DNA from: a virus
Lineage: Duplodnaviria; Heunggongvirae; Uroviricota; Caudoviricetes
Length of the DNA stretch: 64,000 bases
Virus record (IMG/VR): IMGVR_UViG_3300029142_000001
Span: 1 to 64,000 of that record
Strand: one strand, 5' to 3'
Both the position numbers and the translations under genes were made by a program. The notes beneath the pieces are model-generated. The model had not been told where the DNA came from. It was given only the letters and a program-made list of their open reading frames with translations, and did not search any database. Below, piece after piece: positions 4,209 through 52,243 of this stretch; within the stretch, counting starts at the first letter, position 1; each line of letters starts with the position of its first letter.

Positions 4209-5210
4209 TTATTCACTTGGCGGGGTGCTTGGGATTTGAATTAAAGTTCCTGCTCCGCTTCCATCTCCACCGTTCATCATTTCAACAGATGGACGGACAC
4301 CATTCCATTTTTCAATCCATTGCTGGAATGCCTGAATTCTCAATAGTTCAATATAATCCGATCCTGACTGAACAGCCTGCTCGATTTCATATCGACGAGC
4401 ATCTGCTTGAAGTTGTGCAACATGCTTTGCAGCTTCTGCTCTTTCAATATCAGTTGCGTTACGAATGGTCTGTGCTTCCTGCTCTGCAAGTGCAGATGCC
4501 TTGTCCTGTTGTGCTTCCACAACTCGATCAATTGCTCTCTGAATTTCTGTAGATTCATAAGCGAATCCAGACCCCATACCAATCGTGGTAATAGTAATTC
4601 CTCTTTCGGCAAAGTATGGAATTGTATTATCTCGAACCGTGGTCATGATTTGATTTTTCATAGTTCGAAGAATATCCATATCATATTCAGCACACTGTCT
4701 AGCCAATTGATCCTGAATGAATGCTCTCACTTCGGTATCCAGAACACCATCCAATCGATCATTTCCTTCCATAGACGGATACAAGTAAAGGAATTGAGGA
4801 ACATCTTCTGGATTAATCTGTGCTACGATTGTAATATCAATCGAAAATCCTACGGAATCTCTTGATTCAACCCAAATTGAATTTGCGTTTCCTGCTTCCC
4901 AATCACGAGTCTTCGGGGCACGATCGACTACGATAACTCGAACAGTATCAATATAATCTCCAGAGAACCAAAGATATCCATCTTTCTTCCATCGGCGAGG
5001 AACTTGAATTCTTCGAGCCGCTACCTTACTTTGACGAAGGAATGCAACGGATTCAAACGAATCCTGTGCAAGACTATCTCCCTCAAGGGGAATTACAAAT
5101 GCCGTTTCATTTGATCCGATTTCAACATATTTCGGTTCATTAAACTTCCTACAGCCGATCATAGTCAGTGCAAGAAAAATCAACATCGAAATCATCATAT
5201 ATTTTTTCAT
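4209..5210 (-). CDS. SPFH/band-7 (prohibitin/HflC-like) domain lipoprotein
   Basis: Signal peptide with lipobox (LTMIGC), SPFH-like core, C-terminal coiled-coil AEQEAQTIRNATDIERAEAAKHVAQLQADARRYEIEQ. Confidence 0.65.
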   Translation of the reverse strand: MKKYMMISMLIFLALTMIGCRKFNEPKYVEIGSNETAFVIPLEGDSLAQDSFESVAFLRQSKVAARRIQVPRRWKKDGYLWFSGDYIDTVRVIVVDRAPKTRDWEAGNANSIWVESRDSVGFSIDITIVAQINPEDVPQFLYLYPSMEGNDRLDGVLDTEVRAFIQDQLARQCAEYDMDILRTMKNQIMTTVRDNTIPYFAERGITITTIGMGSGFAYESTEIQRAIDRVVEAQQDKASALAEQEAQTIRNATDIERAEAAKHVAQLQADARRYEIEQAVQSGSDYIELLRIQAFQQWIEKWNGVRPSVEMMNGGDGSGAGTLIQIPSTPPSE

Positions 5211-22137: not shown

Positions 22138-25100
22138 ATGTCAAATATTTCTTTCCCTATAGAAAATCAAAATAATGATATGGCAGATTACTGCTTCGTT
22201 TCAAAGTACGCCATGTACGATAAATCAAAGAAGAGACGAGAATCTTGGCCAGAAGCAACAAATAGAGTAATGAAGTGTCTTACTAAGAAATATCCTCAAA
22301 TGGAAGATATTATTCAAAATGAGTTACATGCGGCTTTTAATAACAAAGAAATTTTAGGATCTCAACGACTTTTGCAATTTGCTGGAAAGGCTGTTGAAAA
22401 GCATAATCTGAGAGTTTACAACTGTGCTGGATCATATGTTGATCGTCTTGATTTCTTTCATGAATGCATGTATGTTCTTCTCTGTGGTACAGGGGCTGGA
22501 TTTTCTGTTCAGAAGCATCACATTGCAAAACTTCCAGGATTAAAATCTCAAGATCAGATTCAATCTAGAACTTTGAAGACATTTGTAATTCCAGATACTA
22601 TTGAAGGATGGGCTGATGCTGTTGGTGTTTTGGTATCATCATATTTTTCAGAACCAATAGAGAAATTTAGAGAATATGCAGATAGTCATGTTATTTTTGA
22701 TTATACTGAAATCCGTCCAGAAGGTTCTCCGTTTTCTCATGGAATTGGGCGAGCCCCCGGTCCTGCCGGTCTTCAGAAGACTCTTGAAAAAATCAAAGAA
22801 CTTCTTGATCGTCTGGTAAAATCTCAAGTCAAAAACATCCGTCCTATTCACGCTTATGATATGGTGATGCATATTGCAGATGCCGTATTGTCTGGTGGTG
22901 TGAGAAGATCTGCTACGATTTGTATGTTTTCTCATGATGATATGGAAATGATTCAAGCAAAGTCTGGTAACTGGTTTATTGAAAACCCACAAAGAGCGAG
23001 ATCCAATAATTCTGCAATGCTTCTTCGAAATAAAATTACCAGAAAAGAATTTGAAAAGTTTAAGGAATACACCAAGCAATTCGGTGAGCCTGGATTCTTA
23101 TGGGTTGATAGTCTTGAATATATTTTCAATCCCTGCCTTACTGATGATACATGGATTCATACATCTGATGGTCCACGAATGATTTCTGATTTGATGGGAA
23201 CTCAATTTGAAGCTGTTGTAGATGGAAAAATTGAACAGTCAACCGAGAAAGGGTTTTATAATACGGGAACTCAAGAAGTATTTGAGATTCATACTGATCA
23301 TGGTTATACTCTTCGAGGAACCGCAAACCATCTTATTGAAACAGAAGAAAGTGGATGGGTTCCTATTCATCTTCTTAATGAAAATGACTCTATCAAGCTT
23401 CAAGATCAGCGCCAATTTTCCTCTTGGGATGGTCAGGGATCGTATTCTGATGGCTGGTTGCTAGGATCTCTCGTTGGAGATGGAACATTTCATGATGATA
23501 CTGCGTATCTGTGTTATTGGGGGGAAACAAAAGAACATATGAGAAAGTATGCAGTAGATTTACTACATGAATCTGTTTCATGCAGATCTCATTGTGGATC
23601 TGCAAAGTCATTCGTCCCACATGATAAAATAACAATTTCAAGTAGAGGATTGTATGATTTAGCTTCAGAATTTGATATTGATAAGACAAAAGTACTTACC
23701 GATTCTGTAGAGAAAACATCATCTTCTTTCCATAAGGGATTTTTATCTGGATGGTTTGATGCAGATGGATCCGTACAAGGAAACACTAAAAAGGGTGTAA
23801 GTATTCGTCTTACTTCTACTTCTCTTGAAAATCTTCGTAGAGGTCAACGAATGCTTCTTCGTATGGGAGTGGTTTCTAAGATCTATGAGAATAGACGAGA
23901 AGCTGGTTATAGGGAAATGCCTGATGGTCATGGAAATACAAAAAAGTACTATTGTAAAGCTGTTCATGAATTGATTGTTTCTAAAGAAAATATTCTGAGA
24001 TTTTCTAAAACTATTGGATTTTCTGATCCAGAGAAACAAGAAAAGCTTGACTCTCTTATCAATTCATACACAAGAACTTTGAATAGAGAATCATTTACCT
24101 CTAGAGTTACCGGAATTAGATCTGCTGGGATTGAAAAGGTATATGATTGTACAATCGATTCTGATAGACATGCTTTTGATGCAAACGGAATAACATCACA
24201 TAATTGTGTTGAAATTATGTTCTATTGCTATAACGAACAAGGAGAATCTGGATGGCAGTTCTGTAATCTTAGCACAATTAATGGTAGTTTGGTTAAAAAC
24301 AAAACTGATTTTTATCATGCTGCTGAAATGGCATCTCTCATCGGAACACTTCAAGCTGGGTTCCATGATTTTCCATATCTTGGCAGAGTAACAGAAGAAA
24401 TTGTCCGGAAAGAAGCTCTTATTGGTGTTTCTATTACTGGAATGATGACAAATCCTGATATTCTTTTTGATCCTGAAACTCAAAGAAATGCTGCTTCTAA
24501 AGTTCGCAGAATGAATCAACGAATTGCCAAGGCTATCGGCATTAATCAAGCTGCTAGAAATACATGCGTAAAACCAGAAGGATCTACAACAACTATGTTG
24601 GGACTTGCGGCACTTTCAGGATGTCATGCCGGTAAAGGAAAGTATATCCTTCGTAGAATTCAAGCAAATAAATCAGAAAATCCAGTCGGATTTTACAAGA
24701 ATATTAATCCAACTTCTGTAGAGCATTCTGTGTGGTCTAGTGGAGGAACGGACGATGTAATCACATTCTGCTGTGTATCTGATGATGATGTTATTCAAGA
24801 AAAGAATCTCACGGCATTAGAATTTCTCTCTAAAGTTCTTTCTACTCAAATGAATTGGGTAGAATACGGGACAAATGAAGAACTTTGTTCAGAACCTACA
24901 ATGAGACATAATGTTTCAAATACTGTTCGTGTTCGTGATGACGAATGGGATAGTGTTTGGGATTATATCTATGAAAATAGACAACATTTTGCTGGTATAT
25001 CTTTCTTATCAATGACTGGTGATAAGGATTATAATCAGGCTCCATTCTGTGAAGTATTTACGGCAGATCAAATCGTTGAAGAATATGGACAATGTTCTCT

Positions 25101-25560
25101 ATTCTCTTCGGGATTAATTGAATCAGCTTTGAAGTACTTTCCAAACCTGTGGGATGCATCATCGTGTCTTCTCGGATACGGAGAAATCATTGATGCCCAG
25201 GCATTGAGGGCAAAGATTACTTTTGAATGGGACAATCCAGAGCAAAAAAGAGATTGGAAGGAAAGAGGACTTTCTCCACGATCTATCAATGAAGAATTAG
25301 ATGTTTGGCTTGATCAGACAGTAACAAATCTATCTGGAAAGAGATATTGGATTGCAAAATCAAAAGCATTTGCCGGAAAGTACATGGATGGAAATCTTCG
25401 CCAATACACATATATGATCAAGGATGTATTCAATAACAAACTGTGGCATGATATTATTCGTGAGCATAAGCCTGTAGATTACACAAAGATGATTGAAGAA
25501 CATAACATGACAAAGGGTTCAGAAGAACTTGCATGTGCCGGTGGTACATGTGAAATTTAA
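22138..25560 (+). CDS. ribonucleotide reductase catalytic subunit (probably class II, NrdJ-like) containing an intein
   Basis: No ATP-cone and no adjacent small subunit; active-site NPC|VEI split by a 357-aa insertion; extein about 783 aa; CNLSTIN downstream. Confidence 0.75.
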   Translation: MSNISFPIENQNNDMADYCFVSKYAMYDKSKKRRESWPEATNRVMKCLTKKYPQMEDIIQNELHAAFNNKEILGSQRLLQFAGKAVEKHNLRVYNCAGSYVDRLDFFHECMYVLLCGTGAGFSVQKHHIAKLPGLKSQDQIQSRTLKTFVIPDTIEGWADAVGVLVSSYFSEPIEKFREYADSHVIFDYTEIRPEGSPFSHGIGRAPGPAGLQKTLEKIKELLDRLVKSQVKNIRPIHAYDMVMHIADAVLSGGVRRSATICMFSHDDMEMIQAKSGNWFIENPQRARSNNSAMLLRNKITRKEFEKFKEYTKQFGEPGFLWVDSLEYIFNPCLTDDTWIHTSDGPRMISDLMGTQFEAVVDGKIEQSTEKGFYNTGTQEVFEIHTDHGYTLRGTANHLIETEESGWVPIHLLNENDSIKLQDQRQFSSWDGQGSYSDGWLLGSLVGDGTFHDDTAYLCYWGETKEHMRKYAVDLLHESVSCRSHCGSAKSFVPHDKITISSRGLYDLASEFDIDKTKVLTDSVEKTSSSFHKGFLSGWFDADGSVQGNTKKGVSIRLTSTSLENLRRGQRMLLRMGVVSKIYENRREAGYREMPDGHGNTKKYYCKAVHELIVSKENILRFSKTIGFSDPEKQEKLDSLINSYTRTLNRESFTSRVTGIRSAGIEKVYDCTIDSDRHAFDANGITSHNCVEIMFYCYNEQGESGWQFCNLSTINGSLVKNKTDFYHAAEMASLIGTLQAGFHDFPYLGRVTEEIVRKEALIGVSITGMMTNPDILFDPETQRNAASKVRRMNQRIAKAIGINQAARNTCVKPEGSTTTMLGLAALSGCHAGKGKYILRRIQANKSENPVGFYKNINPTSVEHSVWSSGGTDDVITFCCVSDDDVIQEKNLTALEFLSKVLSTQMNWVEYGTNEELCSEPTMRHNVSNTVRVRDDEWDSVWDYIYENRQHFAGISFLSMTGDKDYNQAPFCEVFTADQIVEEYGQCSLFSSGLIESALKYFPNLWDASSCLLGYGEIIDAQALRAKITFEWDNPEQKRDWKERGLSPRSINEELDVWLDQTVTNLSGKRYWIAKSKAFAGKYMDGNLRQYTYMIKDVFNNKLWHDIIREHKPVDYTKMIEEHNMTKGSEELACAGGTCEI
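23134..24204 (+). mobile_element. LAGLIDADG-type intein in the RNR active site
   Basis: Begins with Cys (CLTDDTW), two LAGLIDADG-like motifs (LLGSLVGDGTF, LSGWFDADGSV), ends ...SHN followed by extein Cys. Confidence 0.7.
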
Positions 25561-25571: not shown

Positions 25572-25847
25572 ATGGATATGTCAAATAAAATTCGCCCGAA
25601 CAAAAATCTTATGGCCGTTATTCGTGATAAGGCAAAAGAAAAAACTGAATCAGGACTTTTTATTCCTGAAACATCAAATAAAAGTGTAAATTCAGGAACT
25701 GTTGTTGCCATAGGAGATGATCTTCCTGATTTTATTACAGTTGGATCGAGGGTTTCATTTGCTGCTGTTGCTCGAACAGAAATAGAACTTGAAGGTCAAA
25801 CTCTACTTATGCTGCATATAGATGATTTATATGCAAAAATACTTTGA
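25572..25847 (+). CDS. groES: GroES-like co-chaperonin
   Basis: IRPNKNLMAVIRDK...EKTESGLFIPE...GTVVAIGDD matches the GroES mobile-loop and core pattern. Confidence 0.6.
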   Translation: MDMSNKIRPNKNLMAVIRDKAKEKTESGLFIPETSNKSVNSGTVVAIGDDLPDFITVGSRVSFAAVARTEIELEGQTLLMLHIDDLYAKIL

Positions 25848-25854: not shown

Positions 25855-25883
25855 TTGACTTTATGATTTATGAATCCTATACT
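25855..25883 (+). promoter_or_regulatory. promoter (TTGACT-17-TATACT)
   Basis: -35 at 25855-25860, -10 at 25878-25883, member of the cTTGACTTT family. Confidence 0.5.
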
Positions 25884-25902
25884 GTAAAGTGTAGGATTTT
25901 TT
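25873..25902 (+). terminator. rho-independent terminator overlapping the promoter -10
   Basis: aatccta...taggatt stem followed by TTTTTT. Confidence 0.5.
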
Positions 25903-25915: not shown

Positions 25916-26137
25916 ATGAAATTTATAGATAAGATTGGTAATTGGATTCGGTTAGCAATAGAAATAATCTTTTTACAGCCCTATAGATTATTTCAACTTA
26001 TTGGATCAAAATGTGAAAATGAAAACAATGTTGAGCTATTTGAATCTATTGGGGTGCTTTTGACTTCTTTGTGGGCAACTTTTTTCATTTTTGCTATAGT
26101 AATGTTTCTTATAGTTTGTATAGCTGTTCTTTTATAA
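25916..26137 (+). CDS. small membrane protein, paralog 1 of a tandem array
   Basis: 73 aa, C-terminal TM helix; TAAAGGAAT-type RBS. Confidence 0.5.
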   Translation: MKFIDKIGNWIRLAIEIIFLQPYRLFQLIGSKCENENNVELFESIGVLLTSLWATFFIFAIVMFLIVCIAVLL

Positions 26138-26149
26138 AGGATTTTAATA

Positions 26150-26341
26150 ATGATTTCACTCATTTTGTGTGTGGCAATGTATTTTCTGGGGGTGATTAGT
26201 TTTCGTAATACTCGTTTATATGAATATATGGAATCTGGAAAGGGCATTGTAAATATTATAACTTTAATTGTATGGCCTTTAATTATCATTCATTGTATTA
26301 TTGATTATATACTTACTTTTGCATATGAAAAATTGCTATGA
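26150..26341 (+). CDS. small membrane protein, paralog 2
   Basis: 63 aa, two hydrophobic segments. Confidence 0.5.
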   Translation: MISLILCVAMYFLGVISFRNTRLYEYMESGKGIVNIITLIVWPLIIIHCIIDYILTFAYEKLL

Positions 26342-26541
26342 CTAAAATTCTAAACTATATTATAGATTGGCCTTCTTATATTGTAGATTGGGCTATTCCT
26401 AAAATTTATAATTCATGGAATAAAGATCTTGTTGATTGTTTTTTGCATATTATGGCACTTATTCAAGTTTTATGGGTGTTAGGTATAATGGTTACATGTA
26501 TATCTTTAATTGTAGGAATTATTTCAGCATTGATTTTATAA
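26338..26541 (+). CDS. small membrane protein, paralog 3
   Basis: 67 aa; WP motif then VLWVLGIMVTCISLIVGIISALIL. Confidence 0.5.
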   Translation: MTKILNYIIDWPSYIVDWAIPKIYNSWNKDLVDCFLHIMALIQVLWVLGIMVTCISLIVGIISALIL

Positions 26542-26551
26542 AGGAATTTCC

Positions 26552-26767
26552 ATGAATATTTTTGATAGAATTGCATTATTTATATCCCGAACAATATCTA
26601 TTATAACACTTCCTATTGTATGGCCTCTGGCTTTAGGAGACTATATTTCAATGAAGTGTACTACACATAGAACAAGTGAAATTTGGACAACTGTATCTAT
26701 AGTGATCCAAATTATATGGGTATTAGCTATATTTTCTTTAATTTTGTTTGCTGGATTTATCTTTTAG
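26552..26767 (+). CDS. small membrane protein, paralog 4
   Basis: 71 aa; VWPLALGDY then IIWVLAIFSLILFAGFIF, similar to paralog 3. Confidence 0.5.
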   Translation: MNIFDRIALFISRTISIITLPIVWPLALGDYISMKCTTHRTSEIWTTVSIVIQIIWVLAIFSLILFAGFIF

Positions 26768-26776: not shown

Positions 26777-27874
26777 ATGAATATTGAATCTTTAGGATTT
26801 ACAATTGTAGAACTTGAACAAGCCATTGAAGATGGCTTTGTTTCTGTTCGTGATCATCCTACAGAGGATCTTCGTATTTACAATTATACTGCAAAAGCAC
26901 AATATTCTAGAACATGGAATTCTGTAACAAGACAATGTAGAGGTCTTATTTTAGATCATGATTTGAACATCATTGCTTTGCCCTATGCTAAGTTCTTCAA
27001 TATTGAAGAAGAAATGGCAAATCCTGATAGTACTTGGCATACACCGACCAAATATTTCCTACAGGAAAAGCATGATGGTTGGTTGGGAATTCTTTATAGA
27101 GAACCAAAGTCTGGTTTGCTTTCAATTGCATCTCGTGGATCTTTTGATAGTTCTGGTGCTATTATTGCAACAAATATTCTCCGCACTAATCACTCTGATT
27201 TTGTTCCGGTGGAAGGTCTTACATACATGTTTGAAATCATTCATCCAGAAACAAAAATTGTTCTGGATTATGAAGGAAAAGAATCTCTCGTGTTTTTTGG
27301 CGTGAATAGTGTAAATGGACCCAACAATGATGTGAGTATATTTGACCAAATGCGGAAAAATGGTTTTGAAATTTGTGAATTCAAAGAACTTGGATGTGGA
27401 AATCTACGATTTTTGTTTGAAGAATACAAGCATGAAAATACAAAGAACAAAGAAGGATATGTTGTTGTAGATGCCAATGATTTTTCAAATCGGCTCAAGA
27501 TCAAATTTGAAAATTATATTCGTGATCATAGAATCATTACTCAACTAACCCCTCTTCGAGTGTGGGAAGCATTGCGTGATGGAGTCTACGATAATATTGT
27601 ATCCGTGTGTCCAGATGAGCATATGGAATGGTTACAGGAAATGCGAAATGAAATCGTAGAGCAATACAACGAAATTTTCTGGAAATCAAAGGCTGCGTTT
27701 GCAAGTTTGATGCTTCAGGTTTGGGATTTAATGTCCGATCCTTTGACTATTGATCGGAAAGAATTTGCTCAAAAAGCATTAAAATATCCAGAATTTGCAC
27801 CAATTTTGTTCGCTATGCTTGACAAAAAGGATTTTTCTCCTATAATTTGGAAGAAAATTAGACCAAATTCTTAA
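26777..27874 (+). CDS. rnlA: RNA ligase, Rnl1 family (T4 RnlA-like)
   Basis: LRIYNYTAKAQYSRTWNSVTRQCRGLIL and KFFNIEE parallel T4 Rnl1 YRIFSYNYASYSDW...ECRGIMF / KFFNLNE; motif I EKHDGW (KxDG). Confidence 0.65.
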   Translation: MNIESLGFTIVELEQAIEDGFVSVRDHPTEDLRIYNYTAKAQYSRTWNSVTRQCRGLILDHDLNIIALPYAKFFNIEEEMANPDSTWHTPTKYFLQEKHDGWLGILYREPKSGLLSIASRGSFDSSGAIIATNILRTNHSDFVPVEGLTYMFEIIHPETKIVLDYEGKESLVFFGVNSVNGPNNDVSIFDQMRKNGFEICEFKELGCGNLRFLFEEYKHENTKNKEGYVVVDANDFSNRLKIKFENYIRDHRIITQLTPLRVWEALRDGVYDNIVSVCPDEHMEWLQEMRNEIVEQYNEIFWKSKAAFASLMLQVWDLMSDPLTIDRKEFAQKALKYPEFAPILFAMLDKKDFSPIIWKKIRPNS

Positions 27875-28150: not shown

Positions 28151-29533
28151 ATGAACATGAATAATTTTATTTTGCGAACTGATGCATATAAGCTGACTCA
28201 CTGGCTCCAATATCCCCCAGGAACTCGGCATGTATATTCATACATGGAGTCTCGTGGTGGTGACGGTGACAGTACTTTGTTTTTCGGGTTGCAGTACTAT
28301 CTTCGTGAATATCTTGAAGGAACTGTTGTATCTCTAGAAGATGTTGATGAGGCACGAGAATTTGCACAATCTGTTTTCGGAACGGATAATTATTTTAACT
28401 ATGCTGGATGGTTGCGTATTGTGAATATGCATGGAGGTCGATTGCCTGTTCGTATTCGGGCTGTTGAAGAAGGGACTTGGATTGGTAAGCAAAATGTGAT
28501 GCTTACAATCGAAAATACAGATCCTGAACTTCCTTGGATTACTAATGTCATTGAAACTCTTTTGATGAAGCTTTGGTATCCAATTTCTGTTGCTTCTTAT
28601 TCTGGAAGCATCTATGATCTTCTTCGTGCAAAGGCAGCACTTACAGGTGGAGAAGTTTCTCCATTCCATTTGAATGATTTTGGATATCGTGGGGTTTCAT
28701 CCGAAGAATCTGCTGGTATCGGTGGGATGGCCCACCTTGTAAACTTCATGGGAACTGATACCCTTCGAGGAATCTTGTTTGCTCAGAAGTATTACGATGC
28801 AGAATATGGAACTGGTATGAGTGTTTTTGCTACGGAGCATTCCACAACCACAACTCACCTTGAATCGGGAGAAGAAGCAGCTATCGGTCAATATCTTGAT
28901 AACGCTGTAGGTATTGCTTCGATTGTTATGGATTCGTATGATACTTACCGATTTGTTGATGAATATATTGGAAAGGTATATCGAGATCGAATTGTTCATG
29001 GAAATGTCCGTGTTGTTCTTAGGCCAGATTCTGGAAATCCCATCGATCAAGTGATGTATATTCTGAATTCTTTGGAAAAGACTTTCCCGATTGAAAGAAA
29101 TGAAGAAGGATACAAACTACTTCATCCAAACATTGGAATCATCTATGGAGATTTCATGTCTTTTGAGACAATCGGAGAAGTTTGTAATGCCATGAAGGAT
29201 GCTGGATGGGCTATCGATGGTCGAAATGTGGTGTTTGGAATGGGTGGAAACCTTCTTCAGAACACTAATCGAGATACCCATCAATTCGCTCTGAAGTGTT
29301 CCTCATCGATGAACGGGGATGGGGAGTGGTTCGATGTCTACAAGGATCCAAAGACCATGCAATCTAAGAGATCCAAGAGAGGGCGTTTGGGACTGATTCG
29401 AGATGATAACGGAGATTTTCAAACTGTTCCAGAGGCTGATGGGGACGAATCTCTACTTTCCGTTGCTTTTGAAAACGGACGAATTGTTCGTCGCACAACA
29501 TTCAGTGCTGTTCAAAAGACTGCACAAATGTAA
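28151..29533 (+). CDS. nadV: nicotinamide phosphoribosyltransferase (NAMPT)
   Basis: N-terminal NFILRTDAYKLTHWLQYPPGT and overall 460-aa architecture typical of NAMPT/NadV. Confidence 0.8.
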   Translation: MNMNNFILRTDAYKLTHWLQYPPGTRHVYSYMESRGGDGDSTLFFGLQYYLREYLEGTVVSLEDVDEAREFAQSVFGTDNYFNYAGWLRIVNMHGGRLPVRIRAVEEGTWIGKQNVMLTIENTDPELPWITNVIETLLMKLWYPISVASYSGSIYDLLRAKAALTGGEVSPFHLNDFGYRGVSSEESAGIGGMAHLVNFMGTDTLRGILFAQKYYDAEYGTGMSVFATEHSTTTTHLESGEEAAIGQYLDNAVGIASIVMDSYDTYRFVDEYIGKVYRDRIVHGNVRVVLRPDSGNPIDQVMYILNSLEKTFPIERNEEGYKLLHPNIGIIYGDFMSFETIGEVCNAMKDAGWAIDGRNVVFGMGGNLLQNTNRDTHQFALKCSSSMNGDGEWFDVYKDPKTMQSKRSKRGRLGLIRDDNGDFQTVPEADGDESLLSVAFENGRIVRRTTFSAVQKTAQM

Positions 29534-31338: not shown

Positions 31339-32313
31339 ATGTCTACACATATTTGTCCGGTAGTACGGATTAAAAAGAGTCCACACCCAAATGCGGATTC
31401 TCTTTCTATTATGGAAATTATGGGATATGAAGTAGCTTTACGGAGTGATGATTGGGAAGATGGTCAATTGGCTGTTCATATTCCTCCTGATTATTGGGTT
31501 CCAGATACTTATCCATTTCAGTTTCTAAAACCAACTTCAACAAAGTGGCAGCGTACTCGAACAAAGAAGTTTCGTGGTCGTTATTCCTATGGATTTTTGA
31601 TTCCTTTGCCTGAAGAATTAAATCTTCAGGTAGGGGATAATGCTATGGAAGCTCTTGGAATCATTCGATATGAAGCACCAGAAAACACTTTTTCTGGAGA
31701 TAATGAATCCGCACCAGAAGGAATTTATCCGAAATACGATATCGAAAACTATCAGAGATACACGGATCTATTGGTAGATGGTGAAACTCAGGTTATTGTA
31801 ACCGAGAAAATTCATGGTGCAAATGCTCGATTTGTATTTACAGACGGGCGTATGCGTGCCGGTACAAGAACTCAATGGAAGAAAAGAGATAGTACCTGTA
31901 TGTGGTGGAGAGCAGTAGAACAAAATCCTTGGATTGAGGAATGGTGTACTGCAAATCCAGACATTACCATATATGGTGAAGTATTTGGTAATGTTCAAAA
32001 TTTAAAGTATGGTGCGATCGGTGGACAAATTTTCTTCCGGGCGTTTGATCTTCTTCAAAATGGTGAATGGATTGATTACACTAATTCCAGAGAAATTGGA
32101 AAGGGTATCGAATGGGTTCCTCTTGTTTATAGTGGACCAATGAACATCGAACTCTTTTCGGAAATCATTTTGGGCAATACTCAATTGATGGATCCAAAGA
32201 ATGCTCATATGATGGAGGGCGTGGTTATTCGTCCATTTGAAGAGATGTATGATTCTTCTGTTGGAAGAGTTATTCTTAAGCTTGTCTCGCCTAGATATTT
32301 GGAGAAGAACTAA
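31339..32313 (+). CDS. RNA ligase, Rnl2-like nucleotidyltransferase domain fused to an N-terminal Myf/EMAP-type tRNA-binding OB domain
   Basis: N-terminal ICPVVRIKKSPHPNADSLSIMEIMGYEVALRSD...QLAVHIP fits the tRNA-binding arm consensus (v.kI...HPnAdkL.v..vd.G); motif I EKIHGANARF matches Rnl2 KIHGTN. Confidence 0.6.
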   Translation: MSTHICPVVRIKKSPHPNADSLSIMEIMGYEVALRSDDWEDGQLAVHIPPDYWVPDTYPFQFLKPTSTKWQRTRTKKFRGRYSYGFLIPLPEELNLQVGDNAMEALGIIRYEAPENTFSGDNESAPEGIYPKYDIENYQRYTDLLVDGETQVIVTEKIHGANARFVFTDGRMRAGTRTQWKKRDSTCMWWRAVEQNPWIEEWCTANPDITIYGEVFGNVQNLKYGAIGGQIFFRAFDLLQNGEWIDYTNSREIGKGIEWVPLVYSGPMNIELFSEIILGNTQLMDPKNAHMMEGVVIRPFEEMYDSSVGRVILKLVSPRYLEKN

Positions 32314-38151: not shown

Positions 38152-38153
38152 CT

Positions 38154-38181
38154 TGACTTTTACATGTTTTTCTCCTATACT
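38154..38181 (+). promoter_or_regulatory. promoter (TTGACTTT-16-TATACT) with conserved RBS cassette
   Basis: -35 at 38154-38159, -10 at 38176-38181, GGAAAGGAGAA RBS. Confidence 0.6.
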
Positions 38182-38200
38182 ATGGGAAAGGAGAAATACC

Positions 38201-39796: not shown

Positions 39797-40060
39797 ATGG
39801 AAAATACTCCGTACATTTTGATCAAGTCCGAAGATTTTATGTTTACATACATCAATTATAAGACACACGATGTTGTTGCTTTTAATTGGTTGTCAATAGT
39901 CATTGGCGGATTCATGCTGCTGTTTTGGCTGTATGTCCTTTTTGAATTTATGATCGTTCGGGTACAAGGAAATTCACATCTTATTGAAGAGGGGCAATTT
40001 CCTGTTTATGTGATGTTTTTCTTTCAAATTGTTTTGACAGTAGTATTAATTATTATGTGA
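39797..40060 (+). CDS. small membrane protein
   Basis: 87 aa with two TM-like segments. Confidence 0.45.
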   Translation: MENTPYILIKSEDFMFTYINYKTHDVVAFNWLSIVIGGFMLLFWLYVLFEFMIVRVQGNSHLIEEGQFPVYVMFFFQIVLTVVLIIM

Positions 40061-42353: not shown

Positions 42354-42620
42354 ATGTGGAAATTTTTTAAGAGATTTCAAACGCGAGATCTTATTCGAGA
42401 GAACATCGAAAATATCGATCCATCTGATTTTGAACTGCAACTTGTAGAACTTAAAGCTGGTTTTTTGGAAGATTGTAGATTTGATAAGAGAGGGTATCAT
42501 CATACCAAATATTTCATTTTTAAGTATTCTGGTCATATCGTTCTTATGATTAATGGAGTTCAGGAACGAGTAGATGAGCCCTGGTTGGTTAACTATTACG
42601 AGAGAATTATTGCATCATAG
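42354..42620 (+). CDS. hypothetical protein
   Basis: 88-aa ORF after the promoter. Confidence 0.45.
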   Translation: MWKFFKRFQTRDLIRENIENIDPSDFELQLVELKAGFLEDCRFDKRGYHHTKYFIFKYSGHIVLMINGVQERVDEPWLVNYYERIIAS

Positions 42621-42633
42621 TAAAGGAATAAAA

Positions 42634-43845
42634 ATGCAGCATGTAGTTTACGATAAGAATTCTGGAATGCGTGTTCCTGTCAAGGTTTGGACCAAGGATT
42701 ATGAACGGTCAGCACTTGAACAAGCAATGAATGTTGCTCGTCTTCCGTTTATTCATAGTCATGTTGCACTTATGCCTGATACACATTTTGGGTATGGTGT
42801 TCCTATTGGATCCGTTGTTCCCTGTGATGGTTATGTGATTCCCAACGCGGTTGGAGTTGATATCGGATGTGGTATGTGTGCTGTGAACACTCGTATTCAT
42901 CTAGGGGATTTTAGTGATTCTGATATTGATACTCTTTTCAATACATTGAAGACTAGAATTCCTGTTGGTTCAAACTGGCATAAGTCAGATGAATATACTG
43001 CATTGCGATTCGATGAAACCGCTAATGAATTGGCAGATATTTTTGGTCGATATGATCCTGTTGGAAAGAAGCCAATCGATGAAAATTCTTTGGTTCGAAT
43101 GTCTGGAACACTCGGAGATGGAAATCATTTCGTTGAGCTTCAGATTGATGAACACAAGAATATTTGGATCATGATTCATTCGGGATCAAGAGCTTTTGGT
43201 GCATCTATCGCAGATCATTATCATCGTCTTGCAAAGAGAATGTGTGAGCTATACCATAGTGACCTTCCTACGCTTGATCTTGCATATCTTCCTGTGAATT
43301 CCGAAGAAGGACAGGGATATATCCAGGCAATGAATCTTGCTTTGGAATTTGCATATCTTAACCGACGAGTAATGATGCTCAATGTGTTGGAAGTGCTGAG
43401 AAGTATGATTCATGGGGCTCCTATGATGGATGAAATGATTAACATCCACCATAACTATGCAGCCATTGAAAATCACAGAGGAAAGAATGTGTGGGTGCAT
43501 AGAAAGGGAGCAACTTCTGCCCGAGAAAATCAGATTGGAATTATTCCTGGATCTATGTGTACCAAGTCGTACATTGTAAGAGGAAAGGGAGATGGTCATT
43601 CCTTTATGTCTTGTTCTCATGGATCGGGTAGAAACTTCAGTCGAAAGGAAGCAAAGAGACGAATTGATGATGGAATTGATCCTTCTCAGGAAGATCAGTT
43701 GAACGGAGTCAAGGTTTTTGGAGCTTCGGATGTTCGTGATGAAGTTTCATCGGCATATAAGAATGTGGAAGATGTCATGGGATATCAGACAGATTTGGTT
43801 GAAATTTTGCATGAATTGCGTCCTCTGGCAGTTCTAAAGGGTTAA
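42634..43845 (+). CDS. rtcB: RNA-splicing ligase RtcB
   Basis: MPDTHFGYGVPIG, GVDIGCGM, GDGNHF, HSGSRAFG, NIHHNY, CSHGSGR motifs of the RtcB family; start at 42634 after AAAGGAATAAAA. Confidence 0.85.
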   Translation: MQHVVYDKNSGMRVPVKVWTKDYERSALEQAMNVARLPFIHSHVALMPDTHFGYGVPIGSVVPCDGYVIPNAVGVDIGCGMCAVNTRIHLGDFSDSDIDTLFNTLKTRIPVGSNWHKSDEYTALRFDETANELADIFGRYDPVGKKPIDENSLVRMSGTLGDGNHFVELQIDEHKNIWIMIHSGSRAFGASIADHYHRLAKRMCELYHSDLPTLDLAYLPVNSEEGQGYIQAMNLALEFAYLNRRVMMLNVLEVLRSMIHGAPMMDEMINIHHNYAAIENHRGKNVWVHRKGATSARENQIGIIPGSMCTKSYIVRGKGDGHSFMSCSHGSGRNFSRKEAKRRIDDGIDPSQEDQLNGVKVFGASDVRDEVSSAYKNVEDVMGYQTDLVEILHELRPLAVLKG

Positions 43846-44107: not shown

Positions 44108-44136
44108 TTGACTTTTACATGTTTTACTGCTATACT
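44108..44136 (+). promoter_or_regulatory. promoter cassette (TTGACTTT-17-TATACT), third near-copy
   Basis: cccttgacttttacatgttttactgctatact matches the cassettes at 38154 and 38903. Confidence 0.6.
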
Positions 44137-46187: not shown

Positions 46188-46260
46188 GGGGGATTGGTGA
46201 AACTGGATATCATGAAAGACTACGAATCTTTTGTTCCGAGTTCGAATCTCGGGTTCCCCG
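46188..46260 (+). tRNA. tRNA-Arg (anticodon ACG)
   Basis: Acceptor GGGGGAT/GTTCCCC (2 GU), AC stem aaaga/tcttt loop ctACGaa, T-arm ccgag-ttcgaat-ctcgg; D-arm not cleanly resolved. Confidence 0.55.
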
Positions 46261-46268
46261 TTTAAACT

Positions 46269-46352
46269 GGAAGAGAACCGGCTGGATCAGGAGCCTGTCT
46301 TGAAAACAGGTAGGGTTAATAGCCCTTGGGGGTTCGAGTCCCCCCTCTTCCG
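46269..46352 (+). tRNA. tRNA-Ser (anticodon TGA), class II
   Basis: Acceptor ggaagag/ctcttcc, AC stem cctgt/acagg loop ctTGAaa, long variable arm, T-arm ggggg-ttcgagt-ccccc. Confidence 0.7.
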
Positions 46353-46374
46353 CTTCTATTTAAAGGAGAAAAAT

Positions 46375-46572
46375 ATGAAAATTTTAGCAGTTTTAGTGTT
46401 TTGCTTGTTTGTTCTTTCTGGATGTTCAACATCTAGTACAGATGTTTCCCAGGTTGATGACTCCGGAGTATCATTAACCGTGGTTAATCCAGATACAGGC
46501 ATTCAAGAAACACTTCGTTTCGATTCTAAAAGAGAAGCAGATGAATACATGTCGGGATTGTATTCAGATTAA
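46375..46572 (+). CDS. small secreted/lipoprotein
   Basis: MKILAVLVFCLFVLSGC signal/lipobox after TAAAGGAGAAAAAT RBS. Confidence 0.5.
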   Translation: MKILAVLVFCLFVLSGCSTSSTDVSQVDDSGVSLTVVNPDTGIQETLRFDSKREADEYMSGLYSD

Positions 46573-46593
46573 TTTTTTCAAAAAGGAAGAAAA

Positions 46594-47436
46594 ATGCACA
46601 GACTAATTTCGTTGATACTATTTTGCATCGTATGTTTAAGCATAGGTACAAGTTCAGCATTTGCAAGTGGAGATTATCCGTATCCATATACAGGACCAAG
46701 TGATGGTCAGTCTGGATATGGATATGTTCCTGAACATCACTACGATCCAGGAACAGGAAATGGACCTACAGATCCATATACTATTTTCCTTTTGGAAATG
46801 ATTAATGGAGCAGATGAATATGAAGAAGTAAGCAAGAAGAATTTGTCTCTTTGTTTATTCTTTGCAACTACTCCGTATGAAAGATTGCAATGCATCATCG
46901 GCCATGCAAGTAACGATCGAATCGAAGCAGAAAAACACCATGCTTGGATGCAAAGACGAGACAATTACATGCAATTTTTATTCTGTAGATGTATGGAAAA
47001 TGCAGGAGATTTTGGTACATGTAACGATAAGTATCCAACACATCCAAACGATCCTACATGGTACCCAACTCCATCATATTGTGATGGACTAGATGAGGCA
47101 ACTTGCCCTGAATGGGATCCAGATGCTGGTGAAGATGGTTTCGGTGGTTGTGTGGGTCAAGGAGAAGGAGATTGGGATTGGCTTGAAAATCTGAATTACC
47201 CAGTTGGTGATCCAGAAAGCAATGACGGATTCGATTCTTGGACACAAGAAATGCACGATGTTTATGAGGACTGGAGAGTTTCAGTTGCAACAAACATGAG
47301 AGATTTCTATACAGATATTGAAAACGGAGAAACTCTTGAAGATGCAATCGTTTTCTTTTACATTGCATATGATGCTGATACAAGTGCTTTTATCTCATCA
47401 TTTTACGCAGAAGTTATCGCATCTGGTAACTATTAA
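46594..47436 (+). CDS. secreted cysteine-rich protein
   Basis: Signal peptide MHRLISLILFCIVCLSIGTSSAFA; acidic, Cys-rich mature region. Confidence 0.5.
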   Translation: MHRLISLILFCIVCLSIGTSSAFASGDYPYPYTGPSDGQSGYGYVPEHHYDPGTGNGPTDPYTIFLLEMINGADEYEEVSKKNLSLCLFFATTPYERLQCIIGHASNDRIEAEKHHAWMQRRDNYMQFLFCRCMENAGDFGTCNDKYPTHPNDPTWYPTPSYCDGLDEATCPEWDPDAGEDGFGGCVGQGEGDWDWLENLNYPVGDPESNDGFDSWTQEMHDVYEDWRVSVATNMRDFYTDIENGETLEDAIVFFYIAYDADTSAFISSFYAEVIASGNY

Positions 47437-47466
47437 GTATAAACACATTGCCCTATAAGGGCAATT

Positions 47467-47551
47467 GGAAGATAATCCCCGATGGTGAAGGGCCTCGCTT
47501 GGAAAGTGAGTGGAGCTTAATAGGCTTCTGGTTCGATTCCAGTATCTTCCG
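47467..47551 (+). tRNA. tRNA-Ser (anticodon GGA), class II
   Basis: Acceptor ggaagat/atcttcc, AC stem ctcgc/gtgag loop ttGGAaa, long variable arm, T-loop ttcgatt. Confidence 0.6.
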
Positions 47552-47580
47552 TTTTTAAAATCTCATTTTAAATAAAATCT

Positions 47581-47669
47581 GGAAAGTAGGCAACTATCGG
47601 TTCGTTGCACCACCCTGCTAAGGTGGCGTATTCTTCGGAGTACTAAGGGTTCGAGTCCCTTACTTTCCG
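47581..47669 (+). tRNA. tRNA-Ser (anticodon GCT), class II
   Basis: Acceptor ggaaagt/actttcc, AC stem ccacc/ggtgg loop ctGCTaa, long variable arm, T-arm aaggg-ttcgagt-ccctt. Confidence 0.65.
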
Positions 47670-47675
47670 CTTAAC

Positions 47676-47749
47676 ATTCCTGTAACTCAATTGGCCAGAG
47701 TGCTTGCTCGACATGCAAGTGGTTCCCAGTTCGAATCTGGGCAGGAATA
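47676..47749 (+). tRNA. tRNA-Val (anticodon GAC)
   Basis: Acceptor attcctg/caggaat, D actc/gagt, AC cttgc/gcaag loop tcGACat, T-arm cccag-ttcgaat-ctggg. Confidence 0.7.
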
Positions 47750-47762
47750 TTTTGAAAATTAC

Positions 47763-47790
47763 TTGACTTCCTCGAAATATCTCCTATAAT
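47763..47790 (+). promoter_or_regulatory. promoter (TTGACTTc-16-TATAAT)
   Basis: -35 at 47763-47768, -10 at 47785-47790. Confidence 0.55.
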
Positions 47791-47827
47791 GTATTATAAT
47801 GTATGTAAAGACTTGAATGGAGTTAAA

Positions 47828-48022
47828 ATGGTAGATCCTGTCATGGCTTTAATTATTTTGGGTGTAGGAATTTTATATTGTGTTATTCGTATTGCAACGA
47901 ATTCGCCCGAAAGAATGTATAAAATTCAGAAAAAAGCCTTCGAAAGACAGAAACGAACTGATGAAGCTTTTGCTTCATATTTGGGTGAATATTACAAAAT
48001 TAAAAATGATGTGTACAAGTAA
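47828..48022 (+). CDS. small membrane protein
   Basis: 64 aa, N-terminal TM helix. Confidence 0.45.
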   Translation: MVDPVMALIILGVGILYCVIRIATNSPERMYKIQKKAFERQKRTDEAFASYLGEYYKIKNDVYK

Positions 48023-48037
48023 TTATAGGAATTTATA

Positions 48038-48256
48038 ATGGAATTTGATCTTGAAAAAGTAATTGAAGAAATCATTGTTGGTAATTCAAATGGAATCAAA
48101 TATACTGCATTGATTGCAGAAGTTCTCGATATCGCACAATCTTCCGGAGCTATTGTAACTCTCGATGAGATCGAAAATGCTGTTACATCAAAGTATACTT
48201 ATCTCAAATACACATTCCAAGGGCGGGAAAAGTGGTTTGTTTTTAAGAATAGTTAA
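48038..48256 (+). CDS. hypothetical protein
   Basis: 72-aa ORF. Confidence 0.4.
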   Translation: MEFDLEKVIEEIIVGNSNGIKYTALIAEVLDIAQSSGAIVTLDEIENAVTSKYTYLKYTFQGREKWFVFKNS

Positions 48257-48268
48257 ACGGAGTATATC

Positions 48269-48727
48269 ATGAATACAATCAATGAATTCACAGATGAAGA
48301 ACTTCAGCAAGAACTTGATCGAAGAAAGATTCAAGCTGCTTGTGAAGAAACTCTAAAAAAGTTGAAGGAATGGGGAAATCCTTATGGAGTGTGGAGGATT
48401 TCAACAGAAGGTGATTGTGAAGGGCGTACAGTAAATGTTCTTGCAACTCGAAAAGGCCATATTGCTGATCTTGCAAGAATCTATGAGAGGGATAAGATGT
48501 ACACTCTCACATTCACAAAAATTGATTTGGATGAAGATGATATTGTAGATACGCCTTCAGAAAAAGGTTCATTCTCTCTTAATTATCACACTTTTCCATC
48601 AGAAGTTGGAGGACATCATCTTGCAATGAGTCAAAAAGTTCATATTGTACAAGAATGGATTGGACCTAATTTTATTGTAGAGAGTTATGAACGAGGATCT
48701 TTTATTGTTAGTAAGAAAAAAACATAG
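48269..48727 (+). CDS. hypothetical protein
   Basis: 152-aa ORF. Confidence 0.45.
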   Translation: MNTINEFTDEELQQELDRRKIQAACEETLKKLKEWGNPYGVWRISTEGDCEGRTVNVLATRKGHIADLARIYERDKMYTLTFTKIDLDEDDIVDTPSEKGSFSLNYHTFPSEVGGHHLAMSQKVHIVQEWIGPNFIVESYERGSFIVSKKKT

Positions 48728-48779
48728 TTTAAAATAATATGAAAGCCTTCATTTTCCTATATAACTATAGGAGAGTGAA

Positions 48780-49271
48780 ATGGAAAAGAAAGTTTTAAAT
48801 GATTTAATAAATTCTGGATTGACACATAAAGAAATTGCAAATAAGGTGGGATGTAGTCAAACCAATGTAAGATATTATATCAAAAAATATAACATTAAAA
48901 AAGGATATTGTATAGTATGTAATAATCAATTGCAAGGAAATCAAAGAAAATATTGTTCTGATCAATGTAAGGGAAGAATATATAAAGAAAATGCAAATAT
49001 ATATGAAAATCAAAAAAAGAGAGCAATTGAAAGAAAAATTAAATTAATAAATATGTGTGGTGGTGAATGTTCTGTATGTGGTTATAAAAAAAATATAGCA
49101 GCATTACATTTTCATCATATTTTACCGGATACAAAATTATTTCAATTAGATTCTAGAAAATGTGCAAATTCTAAATGGAGTACACTACTAACAGAAGTTA
49201 AAAAATGCTCTCTTTTATGTGCAAATTGTCATGCTGAATTACATCATAAAAAATACAATAATTTGATTTAG
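48780..49271 (+). CDS. HNH homing endonuclease with N-terminal HTH
   Basis: LTHKEIANKVGCSQTNVRYYI HTH; HNH core ALHFHHILPD...CSLLCANCHAELHHK. Confidence 0.6.
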   Translation: MEKKVLNDLINSGLTHKEIANKVGCSQTNVRYYIKKYNIKKGYCIVCNNQLQGNQRKYCSDQCKGRIYKENANIYENQKKRAIERKIKLINMCGGECSVCGYKKNIAALHFHHILPDTKLFQLDSRKCANSKWSTLLTEVKKCSLLCANCHAELHHKKYNNLI

Positions 49272-49357
49272 GGGCGAGTTCCATAGCGGCCTAATGGACC
49301 GGACTCATAATCCGGCGAGTTCACACTCAAACGCAGGTTCGAATCCTGTCTCGCCCA
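49272..49357 (+). tRNA. atypical class-II-like tRNA with CAT anticodon
   Basis: Perfect acceptor gggcgag/ctcgccc, D ccat/atgg, AC ccgga/tccgg loop ctCATaa, 17-nt variable region with gagt/actc stem, T-arm gcagg-ttcgaat-cctgt; 86 nt. Confidence 0.45.
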
Positions 49358-49376
49358 TTTTAAAGGAGAATATAAC

Positions 49377-49907
49377 ATGATTTGGCTGGGATGTATTTAT
49401 ATTAGTGTAATTCTTTTGTTGGTGGCCATTTTTGATCCTGGAGATTTTTTTGGATGTATAGCATTAATGTGGTTTATTTTATCTTTATTGATGCTCCTGG
49501 TACTCACTCCCGCTTTTTATGCTGAATCCCGAAGACTTAATCCGAATAGATTGGTTCAACAAAAAGTAATTTTTGAAGAATCTATTCTTCCATCGGAAGA
49601 AGGTTACTATGGTTTATATTTAAATGAATGGAGTGAATTTCATTATGTATCAACTGGATTTGCATTTAGATATTCAGATGGAACAAAAGATTTTGTAGAA
49701 TCGTACTCAATTTCCTTTTCAGATGATGTAGATGCTCCTACAGTATTTAAGTACAAGAATATCTATGAGGTAAATGATTTGTTTTTTCCTTCTTTCAAAT
49801 CGCACATTACTCATGAAGATGGTGTATATTATTTCGTATTTCCATCATCATATCGATCAGAATTTAATACAAAATTCATTACTACTACTTTGTACGAGGA
49901 TTTTTAA
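49377..49907 (+). CDS. membrane protein
   Basis: 176 aa, two N-terminal TM helices. Confidence 0.45.
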   Translation: MIWLGCIYISVILLLVAIFDPGDFFGCIALMWFILSLLMLLVLTPAFYAESRRLNPNRLVQQKVIFEESILPSEEGYYGLYLNEWSEFHYVSTGFAFRYSDGTKDFVESYSISFSDDVDAPTVFKYKNIYEVNDLFFPSFKSHITHEDGVYYFVFPSSYRSEFNTKFITTTLYEDF

Positions 49908-50275
49908 TGGAATGGTACTTTCTTATTATTCTGGCCATTTTTATCACAAAACACCTTATTGTTGATTTTTTCTGGCAGTCTGGATATGAAGTGGCAAACA
50001 AAGGAACTTATGGACATTTCGGTGGTATTTTACATACCGGAAAACATGTCATTGTTTCGGCTTTCTTTCTTATGTTTCTTGTTTCTCCTTTGACTCTTTT
50101 TCTTCTATGTGCATTTGAATTTGTGGTCCATTACCATATGGACTGGTTTAAGATGTGGTGGGGAAAAAGAAAGAAATTTACACCAAATGATGCAAAATTT
50201 TGGCATTGGATGGGAATAGATCAATATATACATTACTTTACTTATCTGATTATGGTTGCTATAATGCTTCTGTAA
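49907..50275 (+). CDS. multi-pass membrane protein
   Basis: 122 aa with 3-4 hydrophobic segments. Confidence 0.45.
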   Translation: MEWYFLIILAIFITKHLIVDFFWQSGYEVANKGTYGHFGGILHTGKHVIVSAFFLMFLVSPLTLFLLCAFEFVVHYHMDWFKMWWGKRKKFTPNDAKFWHWMGIDQYIHYFTYLIMVAIMLL

Positions 50276-50285
50276 GATAAAATTG

Positions 50286-50358
50286 GCTCCTGTATATCAA
50301 TGGCGAGATGGCTTCCGTTACATGGAAGAGGTTGCTGGTTCGAATCCAGCCAGGAGCA
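50286..50358 (+). tRNA. tRNA-Val (anticodon TAC)
   Basis: Acceptor gctcctg/caggagc, AC cttcc/ggaag loop gtTACat, T-arm gctgg-ttcgaat-ccagc. Confidence 0.7.
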
Positions 50359-50360
50359 TT

Positions 50361-50510
50361 ATGACAAAAGAAGAAGCAAACAAAAAGTTAGAAGAAATTA
50401 TTGAAAATTATAGGAAAGAATTTATAATTTTAGATAAAATTCGTAAAGATGAGCAGGAAAAATTTGATAATTCTTGGATAGGTAAAATTGTAAACAGATT
50501 GGAATTTTAA
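50361..50510 (+). CDS. small hypothetical protein
   Basis: 49-aa ORF beginning right after the tRNA; the longer listed ORF would overlap the tRNA. Confidence 0.3.
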   Translation: MTKEEANKKLEEIIENYRKEFIILDKIRKDEQEKFDNSWIGKIVNRLEF

Positions 50511-51085
50511 TTATGAAAAATAGCACAGATTTCCAAAAAAATGTCTAGAATATTTCATTATATTTTTTCATGTATGGAACCCATTATGGGAAATGATATG
50601 CAAGAATTTGTTTTAGAATGTGAAGAAGACTAAAAATGAATAATTTATCATATAACGAAGACAAAGCGGATTTAATCAGGAAGGCAGCAGTAAATGAAGC
50701 TTTTAAGTTTCTAGAAAATCCTGATGATCTCGATGTTTTAGAAAGATTAATAGAATATGGAACTATTTTGAAAAATATAAAAAATGAAAGTGAAGGAGCA
50801 TATAGTAATGGATATTGATATTTTGACAAGTGGACTGAAAGATTTTCTGAAATCATTTGACCCAACCCTTGAAACATGCTATAATGCTGATGACCCTTCA
50901 GAATGGTATACCGGAAATGCAGATGACGATATGAGCAATGGATATGATGCTGGATATCACGCGGCACAAGAACAAATTATGGGAATTGTGAAGGCAGCAG
51001 AAGCAGGTAGATAATATATACAAAGGCGGCGTGAAACTTAAACGGTCAAGACGAAACTTTGACTCCGGATTCGTAACCGGAATTT

Positions 51086-51158
51086 GGGACGGTAGCTTAG
51101 TTGGTAAAGCGTACCGCTGATAACGGTGAGATCATAGGTTCAAGTCCTATTCGTCCTA
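51086..51158 (+). tRNA. tRNA-Ile (anticodon GAT)
   Basis: Acceptor gggacgg/tcgtcct, D gctt-agttggta-aagc, AC taccg/cggtg loop ctGATaa, T-arm atagg-ttcaagt-cctat; resembles E. coli tRNA-Ile. Confidence 0.7.
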
Positions 51159-51190
51159 TTTTTTAGATATTATTCACAGGAAATTATAAA

Positions 51191-51639: not shown

Positions 51640-51645
51640 AATTTG

Positions 51646-51717: not shown

Positions 51718-51743
51718 TTGTTTGACATTAAAGGAGATATATT

Positions 51744-52070: not shown

Positions 52071-52077
52071 TAGTAAT

Positions 52078-52149: not shown

Positions 52150-52157
52150 TTAAAATT

Positions 52158-52229: not shown

Positions 52230-52243
52230 TTGGAGAATACACA

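Follow-up and report, generated by a model that had tools for sequence, protein, structure and literature searches.

Four consecutive short open reading frames (ORFs), p1 to p4, occupy positions 25916–26767 of the window, which is the whole 64,000-nucleotide stretch of phage DNA analysed here (IMG/VR record IMGVR_UViG_3300029142_000001, Caudoviricetes; tRNA-rich, with a low GC content of about 34%). An earlier note on this DNA had described them as a tandem array of four paralogous small membrane proteins. The locus raises two questions: whether the four proteins are similar beyond their hydrophobic composition, and what role such proteins may have in the phage.

The four genes

The ORFs are as follows.

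25916–26137, plus strand: p1, 73 residues, core family member
26150–26341, plus strand: p2, 63 residues, family membership not established
26338–26541, plus strand: p3, 67 residues, probable diverged family member, start overlapping the p2 stop as ATGA
26552–26767, plus strand: p4, 71 residues, core family member

As the earlier note had proposed, four consecutive ORFs of 63–73 residues are present at 25916–26767, all on the plus strand. The same four genes were called independently on three public contigs (JGI 3300029145; Logan SRR4039770 and SRR4039771), which are 99.99–100% identical to the window and hence provide no variation to analyse. With a codon-usage log-odds score trained on 25 long genes of the window, the annotated frame of each of p1–p4 is positive and the other five frames are negative. 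An antisense ORF of 98 residues (25993–26289) has a negative score in its own frame. Given the matching calls on the public contigs and the best coding score in their own frames, p1–p4 are therefore real small membrane-protein genes.

The same ribosome-binding site had been ascribed to all four genes, and this description fits two of them. TAAAGGA(T/A)T precedes p2 and p4, its TAA being the stop codon of the preceding gene, but p1 is preceded by ATAGGAAAA, and p3 lacks a Shine-Dalgarno sequence, its start being coupled to the p2 stop through the ATGA overlap. Small transmembrane (TM) proteins account for about 18 of roughly 123 greedily chosen ORFs in the window, and only p1–p4 are consecutive.

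Relatedness of the four proteins

The Smith-Waterman score between p1 and p4 is 73, compared to a mean of 29–30 for shuffled sequences (z = 8.2 with global shuffles). When residues were permuted only inside 10-residue blocks, such that the hydrophobicity profile is kept, the similarity was equally evident (z = 8.75), and none of 2000 shuffles reached the observed score. The two proteins also find each other reciprocally by phmmer among the 490 ORFs of the window (E about 1e-4). By these comparisons, p1 and p4 are clearly homologous, beyond what hydrophobic composition would give.

The assignment of p3 is less direct. Aligned with p4 alone, it reaches a z of about 3 (p 0.007–0.02). Against a profile of p1, p4 and two homologues from outside the window (see below), built with p3 left out, it scores 9.2 bits, a value reached by 1 of 2000 shuffles of either kind (p about 0.0005), and the alignment is collinear over the Trp-Pro (WP), the loop and the xLW motif. 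When the same profile was used to rank the 490 window ORFs, p3 obtained only E 0.038 and rank 4, behind one spurious ORF. It keeps the WP, the Q-x-x-W motif and a Cys before the TM helix, but has neither the D-K near the N-terminus nor the K-C spacing. An internal tandem duplication of 21 nt in its N-terminus (YIIDWPS/YIVDWAI) accounts for part of the poor alignment. A motif, (V/I)LWVL(G/A)I, had been noted in p3 and p4, and this observation is essentially right, the sequences being (Q)VLWVLGI in p3 and IIWVLAI in p4. Taken together, the alignments indicate that p3 is probably a diverged family member.

In contrast to p1, p3 and p4, p2 scores −1.9 bits against the family profile, which is not significant (p = 0.64–0.86 against shuffles), and WP is the only family trait that it keeps. 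Two shorter resemblances were found: a 14-residue p2–p4 motif, IITL-IVWPL...DYI (also written IITL(P)IVWPL), with a z of 2.0–2.4 and p of about 0.03, and a 12-nt exact identity between p2 and p4, ATTGTATGGCCT (p 0.016 against p4; 0.044 against any of the three genes). Since ITLIV-type strings recur in these TM segments, the p3 TM helix included, both are counted as suggestive only. A circularly permuted origin, in which p2 would combine the TM helix of one copy with the Trp-Pro helix of the next, was also considered and rejected: the similarity of the p1 C-terminus (FLIVCIAV) to the p2 N-terminus (SLILCVAM) is not significant (blastp E 0.09). The relation of p2 to the family is thus uncertain on this evidence, and it may be an unrelated or a highly derived neighbour.

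No further family members were found among the 490 window ORFs by phmmer. An 87-residue two-TM protein encoded at 39797–40060 is like p1, p3 and p4 in that its sequence stops within the last TM helix (...VLIIM), but it has no detectable relation to the p1/p4 family.

The description of four paralogues therefore holds for p1 and p4 and probably for p3, and is not borne out for p2, which shows no significant similarity to the others beyond hydrophobic composition apart from one short motif. Two clear copies and one probable copy in this phage are well supported by the alignments. That p1–p4 form no family at all, either because the similarity reflects hydrophobic composition alone or because some of the ORFs are not genes, is highly improbable: it can draw on the p2 score, on the window ranking of p3 and on the recurrent ITLIV-type strings, but each of the four ORFs has its best coding score of six in its own frame, and for p1 and p4 this view is ruled out by the block-shuffle result and by an outside homologue in which the non-hydrophobic positions D, K/R, P, K-C, E and W are likewise conserved.

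Relatives outside the window

An HMMER profile search of 1.84e9 representative proteins retrieved p1, p3, p4 and one outside protein of 78 residues, P0124 (E 8.6e-5). Its cluster mate, P0125, is encoded on a 3.6-kb ENA contig, L073, of a different, uncultured phage. A tblastn search with P0125 against the window matches p1 with 34% identity over 70 residues (E 3.6e-8) and p4 with E 5e-5; the other genes of L073 have no match in the window. The P0125 gene is single-copy on its contig, so that tandem multiplicity is not a trait of the family. An HNH endonuclease gene precedes it at a distance of 4 nt, and a promoter, TTGACA-17 nt-TATACT, in the same style as those of the window, comes after it. 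Another gene of L073 codes for a virion protein whose relatives occur in cyanomyoviruses and phage HMO-2011.

The contigs of P0124 and P0125 differ at 14 of 844 aligned nucleotides, with no differences in the first 639. Eight of the 14 fall within the 31 nt of the inter-helix loop codons (nt 640–670 of the P0124 contig, L004; nt 2843–2873 of L073), compared to 3 in 206 nt for the rest of the gene. This clustering is significant (scan-permutation p 2.6e-4), and the Lys-Cys pair is kept. The loop patch comprises five replacements and three silent changes, with no excess of replacements. For this reason, the patch may have arisen by recombination or gene conversion rather than by diversifying selection. 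Identity between the two contigs is complete across the HNH gene and for 98 nt into the small gene, after which the mosaic loop patch follows; lying near a free-standing HNH endonuclease gene, the patch is possibly a recombination or co-conversion boundary.

All other searches returned neither a further relative nor a known family. The proteins have no sequence match in Pfam, PHROGs, NCBIfam, PADLOC or the PDB, and in Pfam and PHROG searches at E<=1 no annotated family was matched, the weak hits being to families that are unrelated or lack annotation. When 5.8e9 proteins were searched by word index with p4 alone, only the query was retrieved, and a four-sequence profile searched against the same 5.8e9 proteins retrieved only sequences that were already known. 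With Foldseek, no viral model of BFVD was matched at E below 0.5. Neither INPHARED (megablast) nor IMG/VR contains a close relative of the locus. In tblastn searches of INPHARED at E<=10, p1 has no match, while p4 and P0124 gave three matches that were treated as chance: the C-terminal part of a 190-residue Streptomyces-phage membrane protein, a stretch antisense to a 618-residue gene of a faecal contig, and a match that is short and partial. The loop was also sought as a degenerate DNA pattern (K-C-[ED]-N-[ED]-[ND]-N-x-E); IMG/VR contained no match, and none of the 48 matches in JGI metagenomes or 20 matches in GTDB genomes lies in a small TM protein.

The results support well the assignment of p1 and p4, and probably p3, to a new, phage-specific and very rare family of putative small two-helix inner-membrane proteins, with one outside relative found and no representative in any of the curated libraries searched.

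Predicted anatomy and topology

AlphaFold2 models, computed from a five-sequence alignment, consist of two long helices for both p1 (residues 3–31 and 36–72; pLDDT 80.6) and p4 (residues 3–34 and 39–70; pLDDT 78.1). In both models, the predicted four-residue break between the helices falls exactly at the invariant Lys-Cys pair (K32-C33 in p1; K35-C36 in p4). The two helices may pack as a hairpin.

The C-terminal helix of p1, p3 and p4 is a strong, long TM helix that extends to the last residue (...AVLL, ...ALIL and ...GFIF, respectively). In contrast, p2 contains two hydrophobic segments (residues 1–20 and 29–59) and ends in EKLL. The N-terminal half of p1, p3 and p4 is amphipathic (muH 0.5–0.65) and is TM-like only in p4. 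Helix 1 of p1 carries a continuous polar stripe (D5-N9-R12-E16-R24-Q27; muH 0.65), and the TM-like helix 1 of p4 contains W24-P25. A Trp-Pro had been described as conserved within an N-terminal amphipathic segment of all four proteins. WP does occur in p2, p3 and p4, but p1 has Gln-Pro instead, and the WP of p2 is located in its second hydrophobic segment.

The positions kept across p1, p4 and the outside homologues are D5, K/R6, I11, a Pro in helix 1, the Lys-Cys pair, the Glu that opens helix 2, and a [Q/N/S]xxW motif in the TM helix, in which a conserved polar residue (Q, N or S) sits three positions before the invariant Trp. In the full-length alignment of p1, p4, P0124 and P0125 these positions are collinear, in the order Pro-helix, Lys-Cys and Trp-TM, and the helix 1 Pro is mostly part of a WP. 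The conserved Cys is not preceded by a lipobox, and a lipoprotein identity was rejected.

In p1 and P0124, the N-terminal tail is net positive and the loop is net acidic. By the positive-inside rule, an N-in/C-in topology with the loop outside is therefore favored, provided that helix 1 is membrane-spanning; in p4 and P0124 this helix is TM-like. In p1 and p3 it is too polar for a standard TM helix, so that a tail-anchored arrangement, with an interfacial helix and a cytoplasmic loop, is equally possible.

Genomic context and transcription

The cluster is flanked by a gene for a GroES-like protein (25572–25847; Cpn10, E 9e-15) and a gene for an RnlA-type RNA ligase. The genes around it encode a DNA primase, ThyA, an intein-containing class II ribonucleotide reductase (RNR), GroES, RnlA, nicotinamide phosphoribosyltransferase (NAMPT), an Rnl2-like ligase and glycosyltransferases. 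It is thus located in an early/replication, nucleotide-metabolism and RNA-repair region of a tRNA-rich phage. No lysis genes (endolysin, spanin) or structural genes are found within about 8 kb on either side. Among 5.8e9 proteins, the best homologue of the adjoining RNA ligase does not exceed 43% identity.

Several other features of the window were observed. The RNR gene (22138–25560) is split by an intein with a LAGLIDADG homing-endonuclease domain (Pfam). NAMPT and an SPFH/Band-7 domain protein (phrog_200, 'lipoprotein') are encoded at 28151–29533 and 4209–5210 (minus strand). Twenty-four tRNA genes are located on the plus strand at 46188–63246 among small ORFs and promoters, with two genes each for Ile-GAT, Tyr-GTA, Asn-GTT and Lys-TTT. 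Beside these tRNA genes, the window has an unusually rich RNA-repair set (26777–27874, 31339–32313, 42574–43845 and 56136–56810), consisting of the RnlA-type ligase, the Rnl2-like ligase (PF09414), RtcB (E 6e-112) and an RNA-ligase-like gene (phrog_24030). The combination of the RNA-repair set and the tRNA genes suggests counter-defence against anticodon nucleases.

The elements that bear on transcription of the cluster are as follows.

25855–25883, plus strand: sigma-70-type promoter, TTGACT-17 nt-TATACT, 32 nt upstream of the p1 start
25872–25902, plus strand: 12-bp hairpin, GAATCCTATACT / AGTGTAGGATTT, with loop GTAA, running into a T-run (RNAfold)
26777–27874, plus strand: RnlA-type RNA ligase 1 gene (PF09511), starting 9 nt after p4, not a family member

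The p1 promoter is one of about 22 mostly intergenic plus-strand promoters with the extended consensus aaatt(g)C-TTGACTTT...TATAAT. The 5′ arm of the hairpin contains the −10 hexamer of this promoter. The hairpin looks like the terminator of the upstream RNR-GroES unit; it was not called by a consensus terminator scan because it has too few G-C pairs. Neither a promoter nor a terminator was found between p4 and rnlA, and the next consensus promoter is at 27819. Judged from this arrangement, p1–p4 are probably co-transcribed with the RnlA-type RNA ligase as one unit driven by the host RNA polymerase. From the promoter type, we infer that this unit is early.

The near-consensus sigma-70-type promoters extend over 11153–62107 of the plus strand (for example, 38153–38181, 44108–44136, 54155–54183 and 60285–60312). 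Each consists of an A/T-rich stretch and C-TTGACTTT, followed after 16–18 nt by TATAAT or TATACT, and lies just upstream of genes or tRNA clusters. The phage appears to rely heavily on the host RNA polymerase. In several of these promoters (54155–54215, 60057–60105, 38153–38200 and 25872–25902), the −10 hexamer is in the loop or the 5′ arm of a strong hairpin, whose 3′ arm is the Shine-Dalgarno sequence GGAGA followed by a T-run. Such hairpins look like combined terminator/promoter modules, in which the ribosome-binding site might be sequestered in read-through transcripts and not in those initiated at the promoter, an arrangement that recalls the T4 e and soc genes.

Possible functions

The p1–p4 promoter is of the same class as those driving the tRNA and replication genes. 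This class, the replication and nucleotide-metabolism surroundings and the lack of lysis genes are compatible with a factor that acts early at the membrane. Phages commonly carry small early membrane ORFans, the majority of which have other or unknown roles. The role that we prefer, tentatively and by analogy, is that of an early inner-membrane immunity-type or superinfection-exclusion factor working like T4 Imm. According to this proposal, the host RNA polymerase would transcribe p1–p4 and RNA ligase 1 from their own consensus promoter, probably early, and the long C-terminal TM helix would insert the proteins into the cytoplasmic membrane, with helix 1 either spanning the membrane or lying on its surface. 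In the N-in/C-in version, the short Lys-Cys loop would face outward. The loop, together with the polar TM residue of the [Q/N/S]xxW motif, could bind a membrane partner, such that a membrane-inserting component of incoming phages would be blocked, and divergence of the paralogues along with variation of the loop could give different specificities.

T4 Imm is a small early membrane protein whose inter-helix loop binds the tape-measure protein of an incoming phage (bioRxiv 10.64898/2026.03.06.709160). T4 Imm, with which HK97 gp15 is grouped here as described in the same paper, shares with the present family a small size (about 60–90 residues) and the character of a helical, phage-encoded inner-membrane protein, as well as early synthesis if the predicted timing of the family is right. 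The loop, which is the functional contact of T4 Imm, is the part of the family that varies between P0124 and P0125. T4 Imm differs in being modelled with four helices rather than two, and it has no detectable sequence similarity to the family. More generally, neither the library searches, the PDB sequence search nor Foldseek against BFVD gave a sequence or fold link between the family and T4 Imm or any other characterised protein.

A second possibility is nearly as likely as an immunity factor, namely that the proteins are host-takeover effectors, i.e. early small membrane proteins that bind and inhibit a membrane machine of the host, such as the divisome, peptidoglycan or lipid II synthesis, transporters or a membrane protease. 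The anatomy and context described above (sigma-70-type promoter, replication/metabolism surroundings, strong TM helix with an amphipathic helix, polar TM residue) would serve such a function equally. There is also a precedent: Gp11 of the S. aureus phage PhiNM1, an early small membrane protein, binds MurG and DivIC and inhibits host cell division and peptidoglycan synthesis (PMC11237401). Gp11 resembles the family as the product of an early gene acting at the cytoplasmic membrane, and differs in being single-copy and in having no homology to the family. However, searches of Pfam and PHROGs revealed no homology to any effector of this kind, and several diverged copies with a variable loop are less expected for one conserved host target.

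Less likely than either of these roles, and improbable in itself, is a membrane-permeabilising peptide, whose amphipathic and TM helices would oligomerise into a viroporin- or toxin-like small pore or depolarising assembly, or an anti-defence peptide that neutralises a membrane-bound abortive-infection effector. The unbroken polar stripe of p1 helix 1 and the conserved Q/N/S in the TM helix could suit either peptide, and an anti-defence role would fit the probable co-transcription with rnlA as well as the investment of the window in tRNA repair (RtcB, two further RNA-ligase genes and 24 tRNA genes). The argument is nevertheless one of guilt by association. PADLOC, NCBIfam and the toxin families gave no match, and an early-expressed pore would harm the phage unless it is tightly controlled.

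A role in lysis timing, as holin, antiholin or pinholin, is very unlikely. Class II holins and pinholins (e.g. S21 of phage 21) form a two-helix N-in/C-in hairpin with a weakly hydrophobic first helix, and holins typically have a C-terminal tail in the cytoplasm, beyond the last TM helix, that is charged and in most cases basic. The size of 63–73 residues and the possible two-TM N-in/C-in hairpin, with a weakly hydrophobic first helix, do resemble class II holins, and paralogous pairs could serve as holin and antiholin. In contrast, p1, p3 and p4 end inside the TM helix and have no charged tail, no holin family is matched in Pfam or PHROGs, endolysin and spanin genes are lacking within about 8 kb on either side, and the promoter of the cluster, in the replication region, is of the host sigma-70 class common to the replication and tRNA genes.

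Two further groups of proteins offer partial parallels. Short helical-hairpin membrane proteins encoded beside toxin genes in bacteria and plasmids have their specificity in loops and TM contacts and are often diversified; they differ from the present family in that p1–p4 have no toxin gene nearby and no homology to them. The high-light-inducible proteins (HLIPs) of cyanophages are likewise encoded by tandem genes for small single-TM proteins in an aquatic-type phage, and the contig of the outside homologue carries the cyanomyovirus-like virion protein mentioned above. HLIPs bind chlorophyll through an ExxNGRxAMxGF-type motif, and an HLIP identity was rejected, as the motif is absent from all four sequences by direct reading and there is no Pfam match.

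Within the preferred immunity-type role, a bolder version would make the cluster a multi-specificity exclusion array. Each diverged two-helix protein would present its short Lys-Cys loop at the outer side of the inner membrane and keep the genomes of a different set of competing phages from entering, the loop being a fast-changing specificity determinant swapped by phage recombination. The mosaic loop patch between P0124 and P0125 suggests such an exchange. As a whole, this version is improbable.

Significance

The cluster is an ordinary kind of phage ORFan small-membrane-protein cluster, and its sequence family has not been described before. In practice its value is modest, as both phage and host are uncultivated, only one outside relative is known, and nothing points to a new kind of mechanism. 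No part of phage genomes is less well understood than the small membrane proteins, several of which govern superinfection, host takeover or lysis timing. The anatomy of this family is clear and testable: a Pro kink is conserved, the Lys-Cys turn is invariant, the TM helix carries a polar-x-x-Trp motif, and the loop is variable. If the cluster does act as an exclusion array, it would represent a second way, with a simpler structure, of doing what T4 Imm does.
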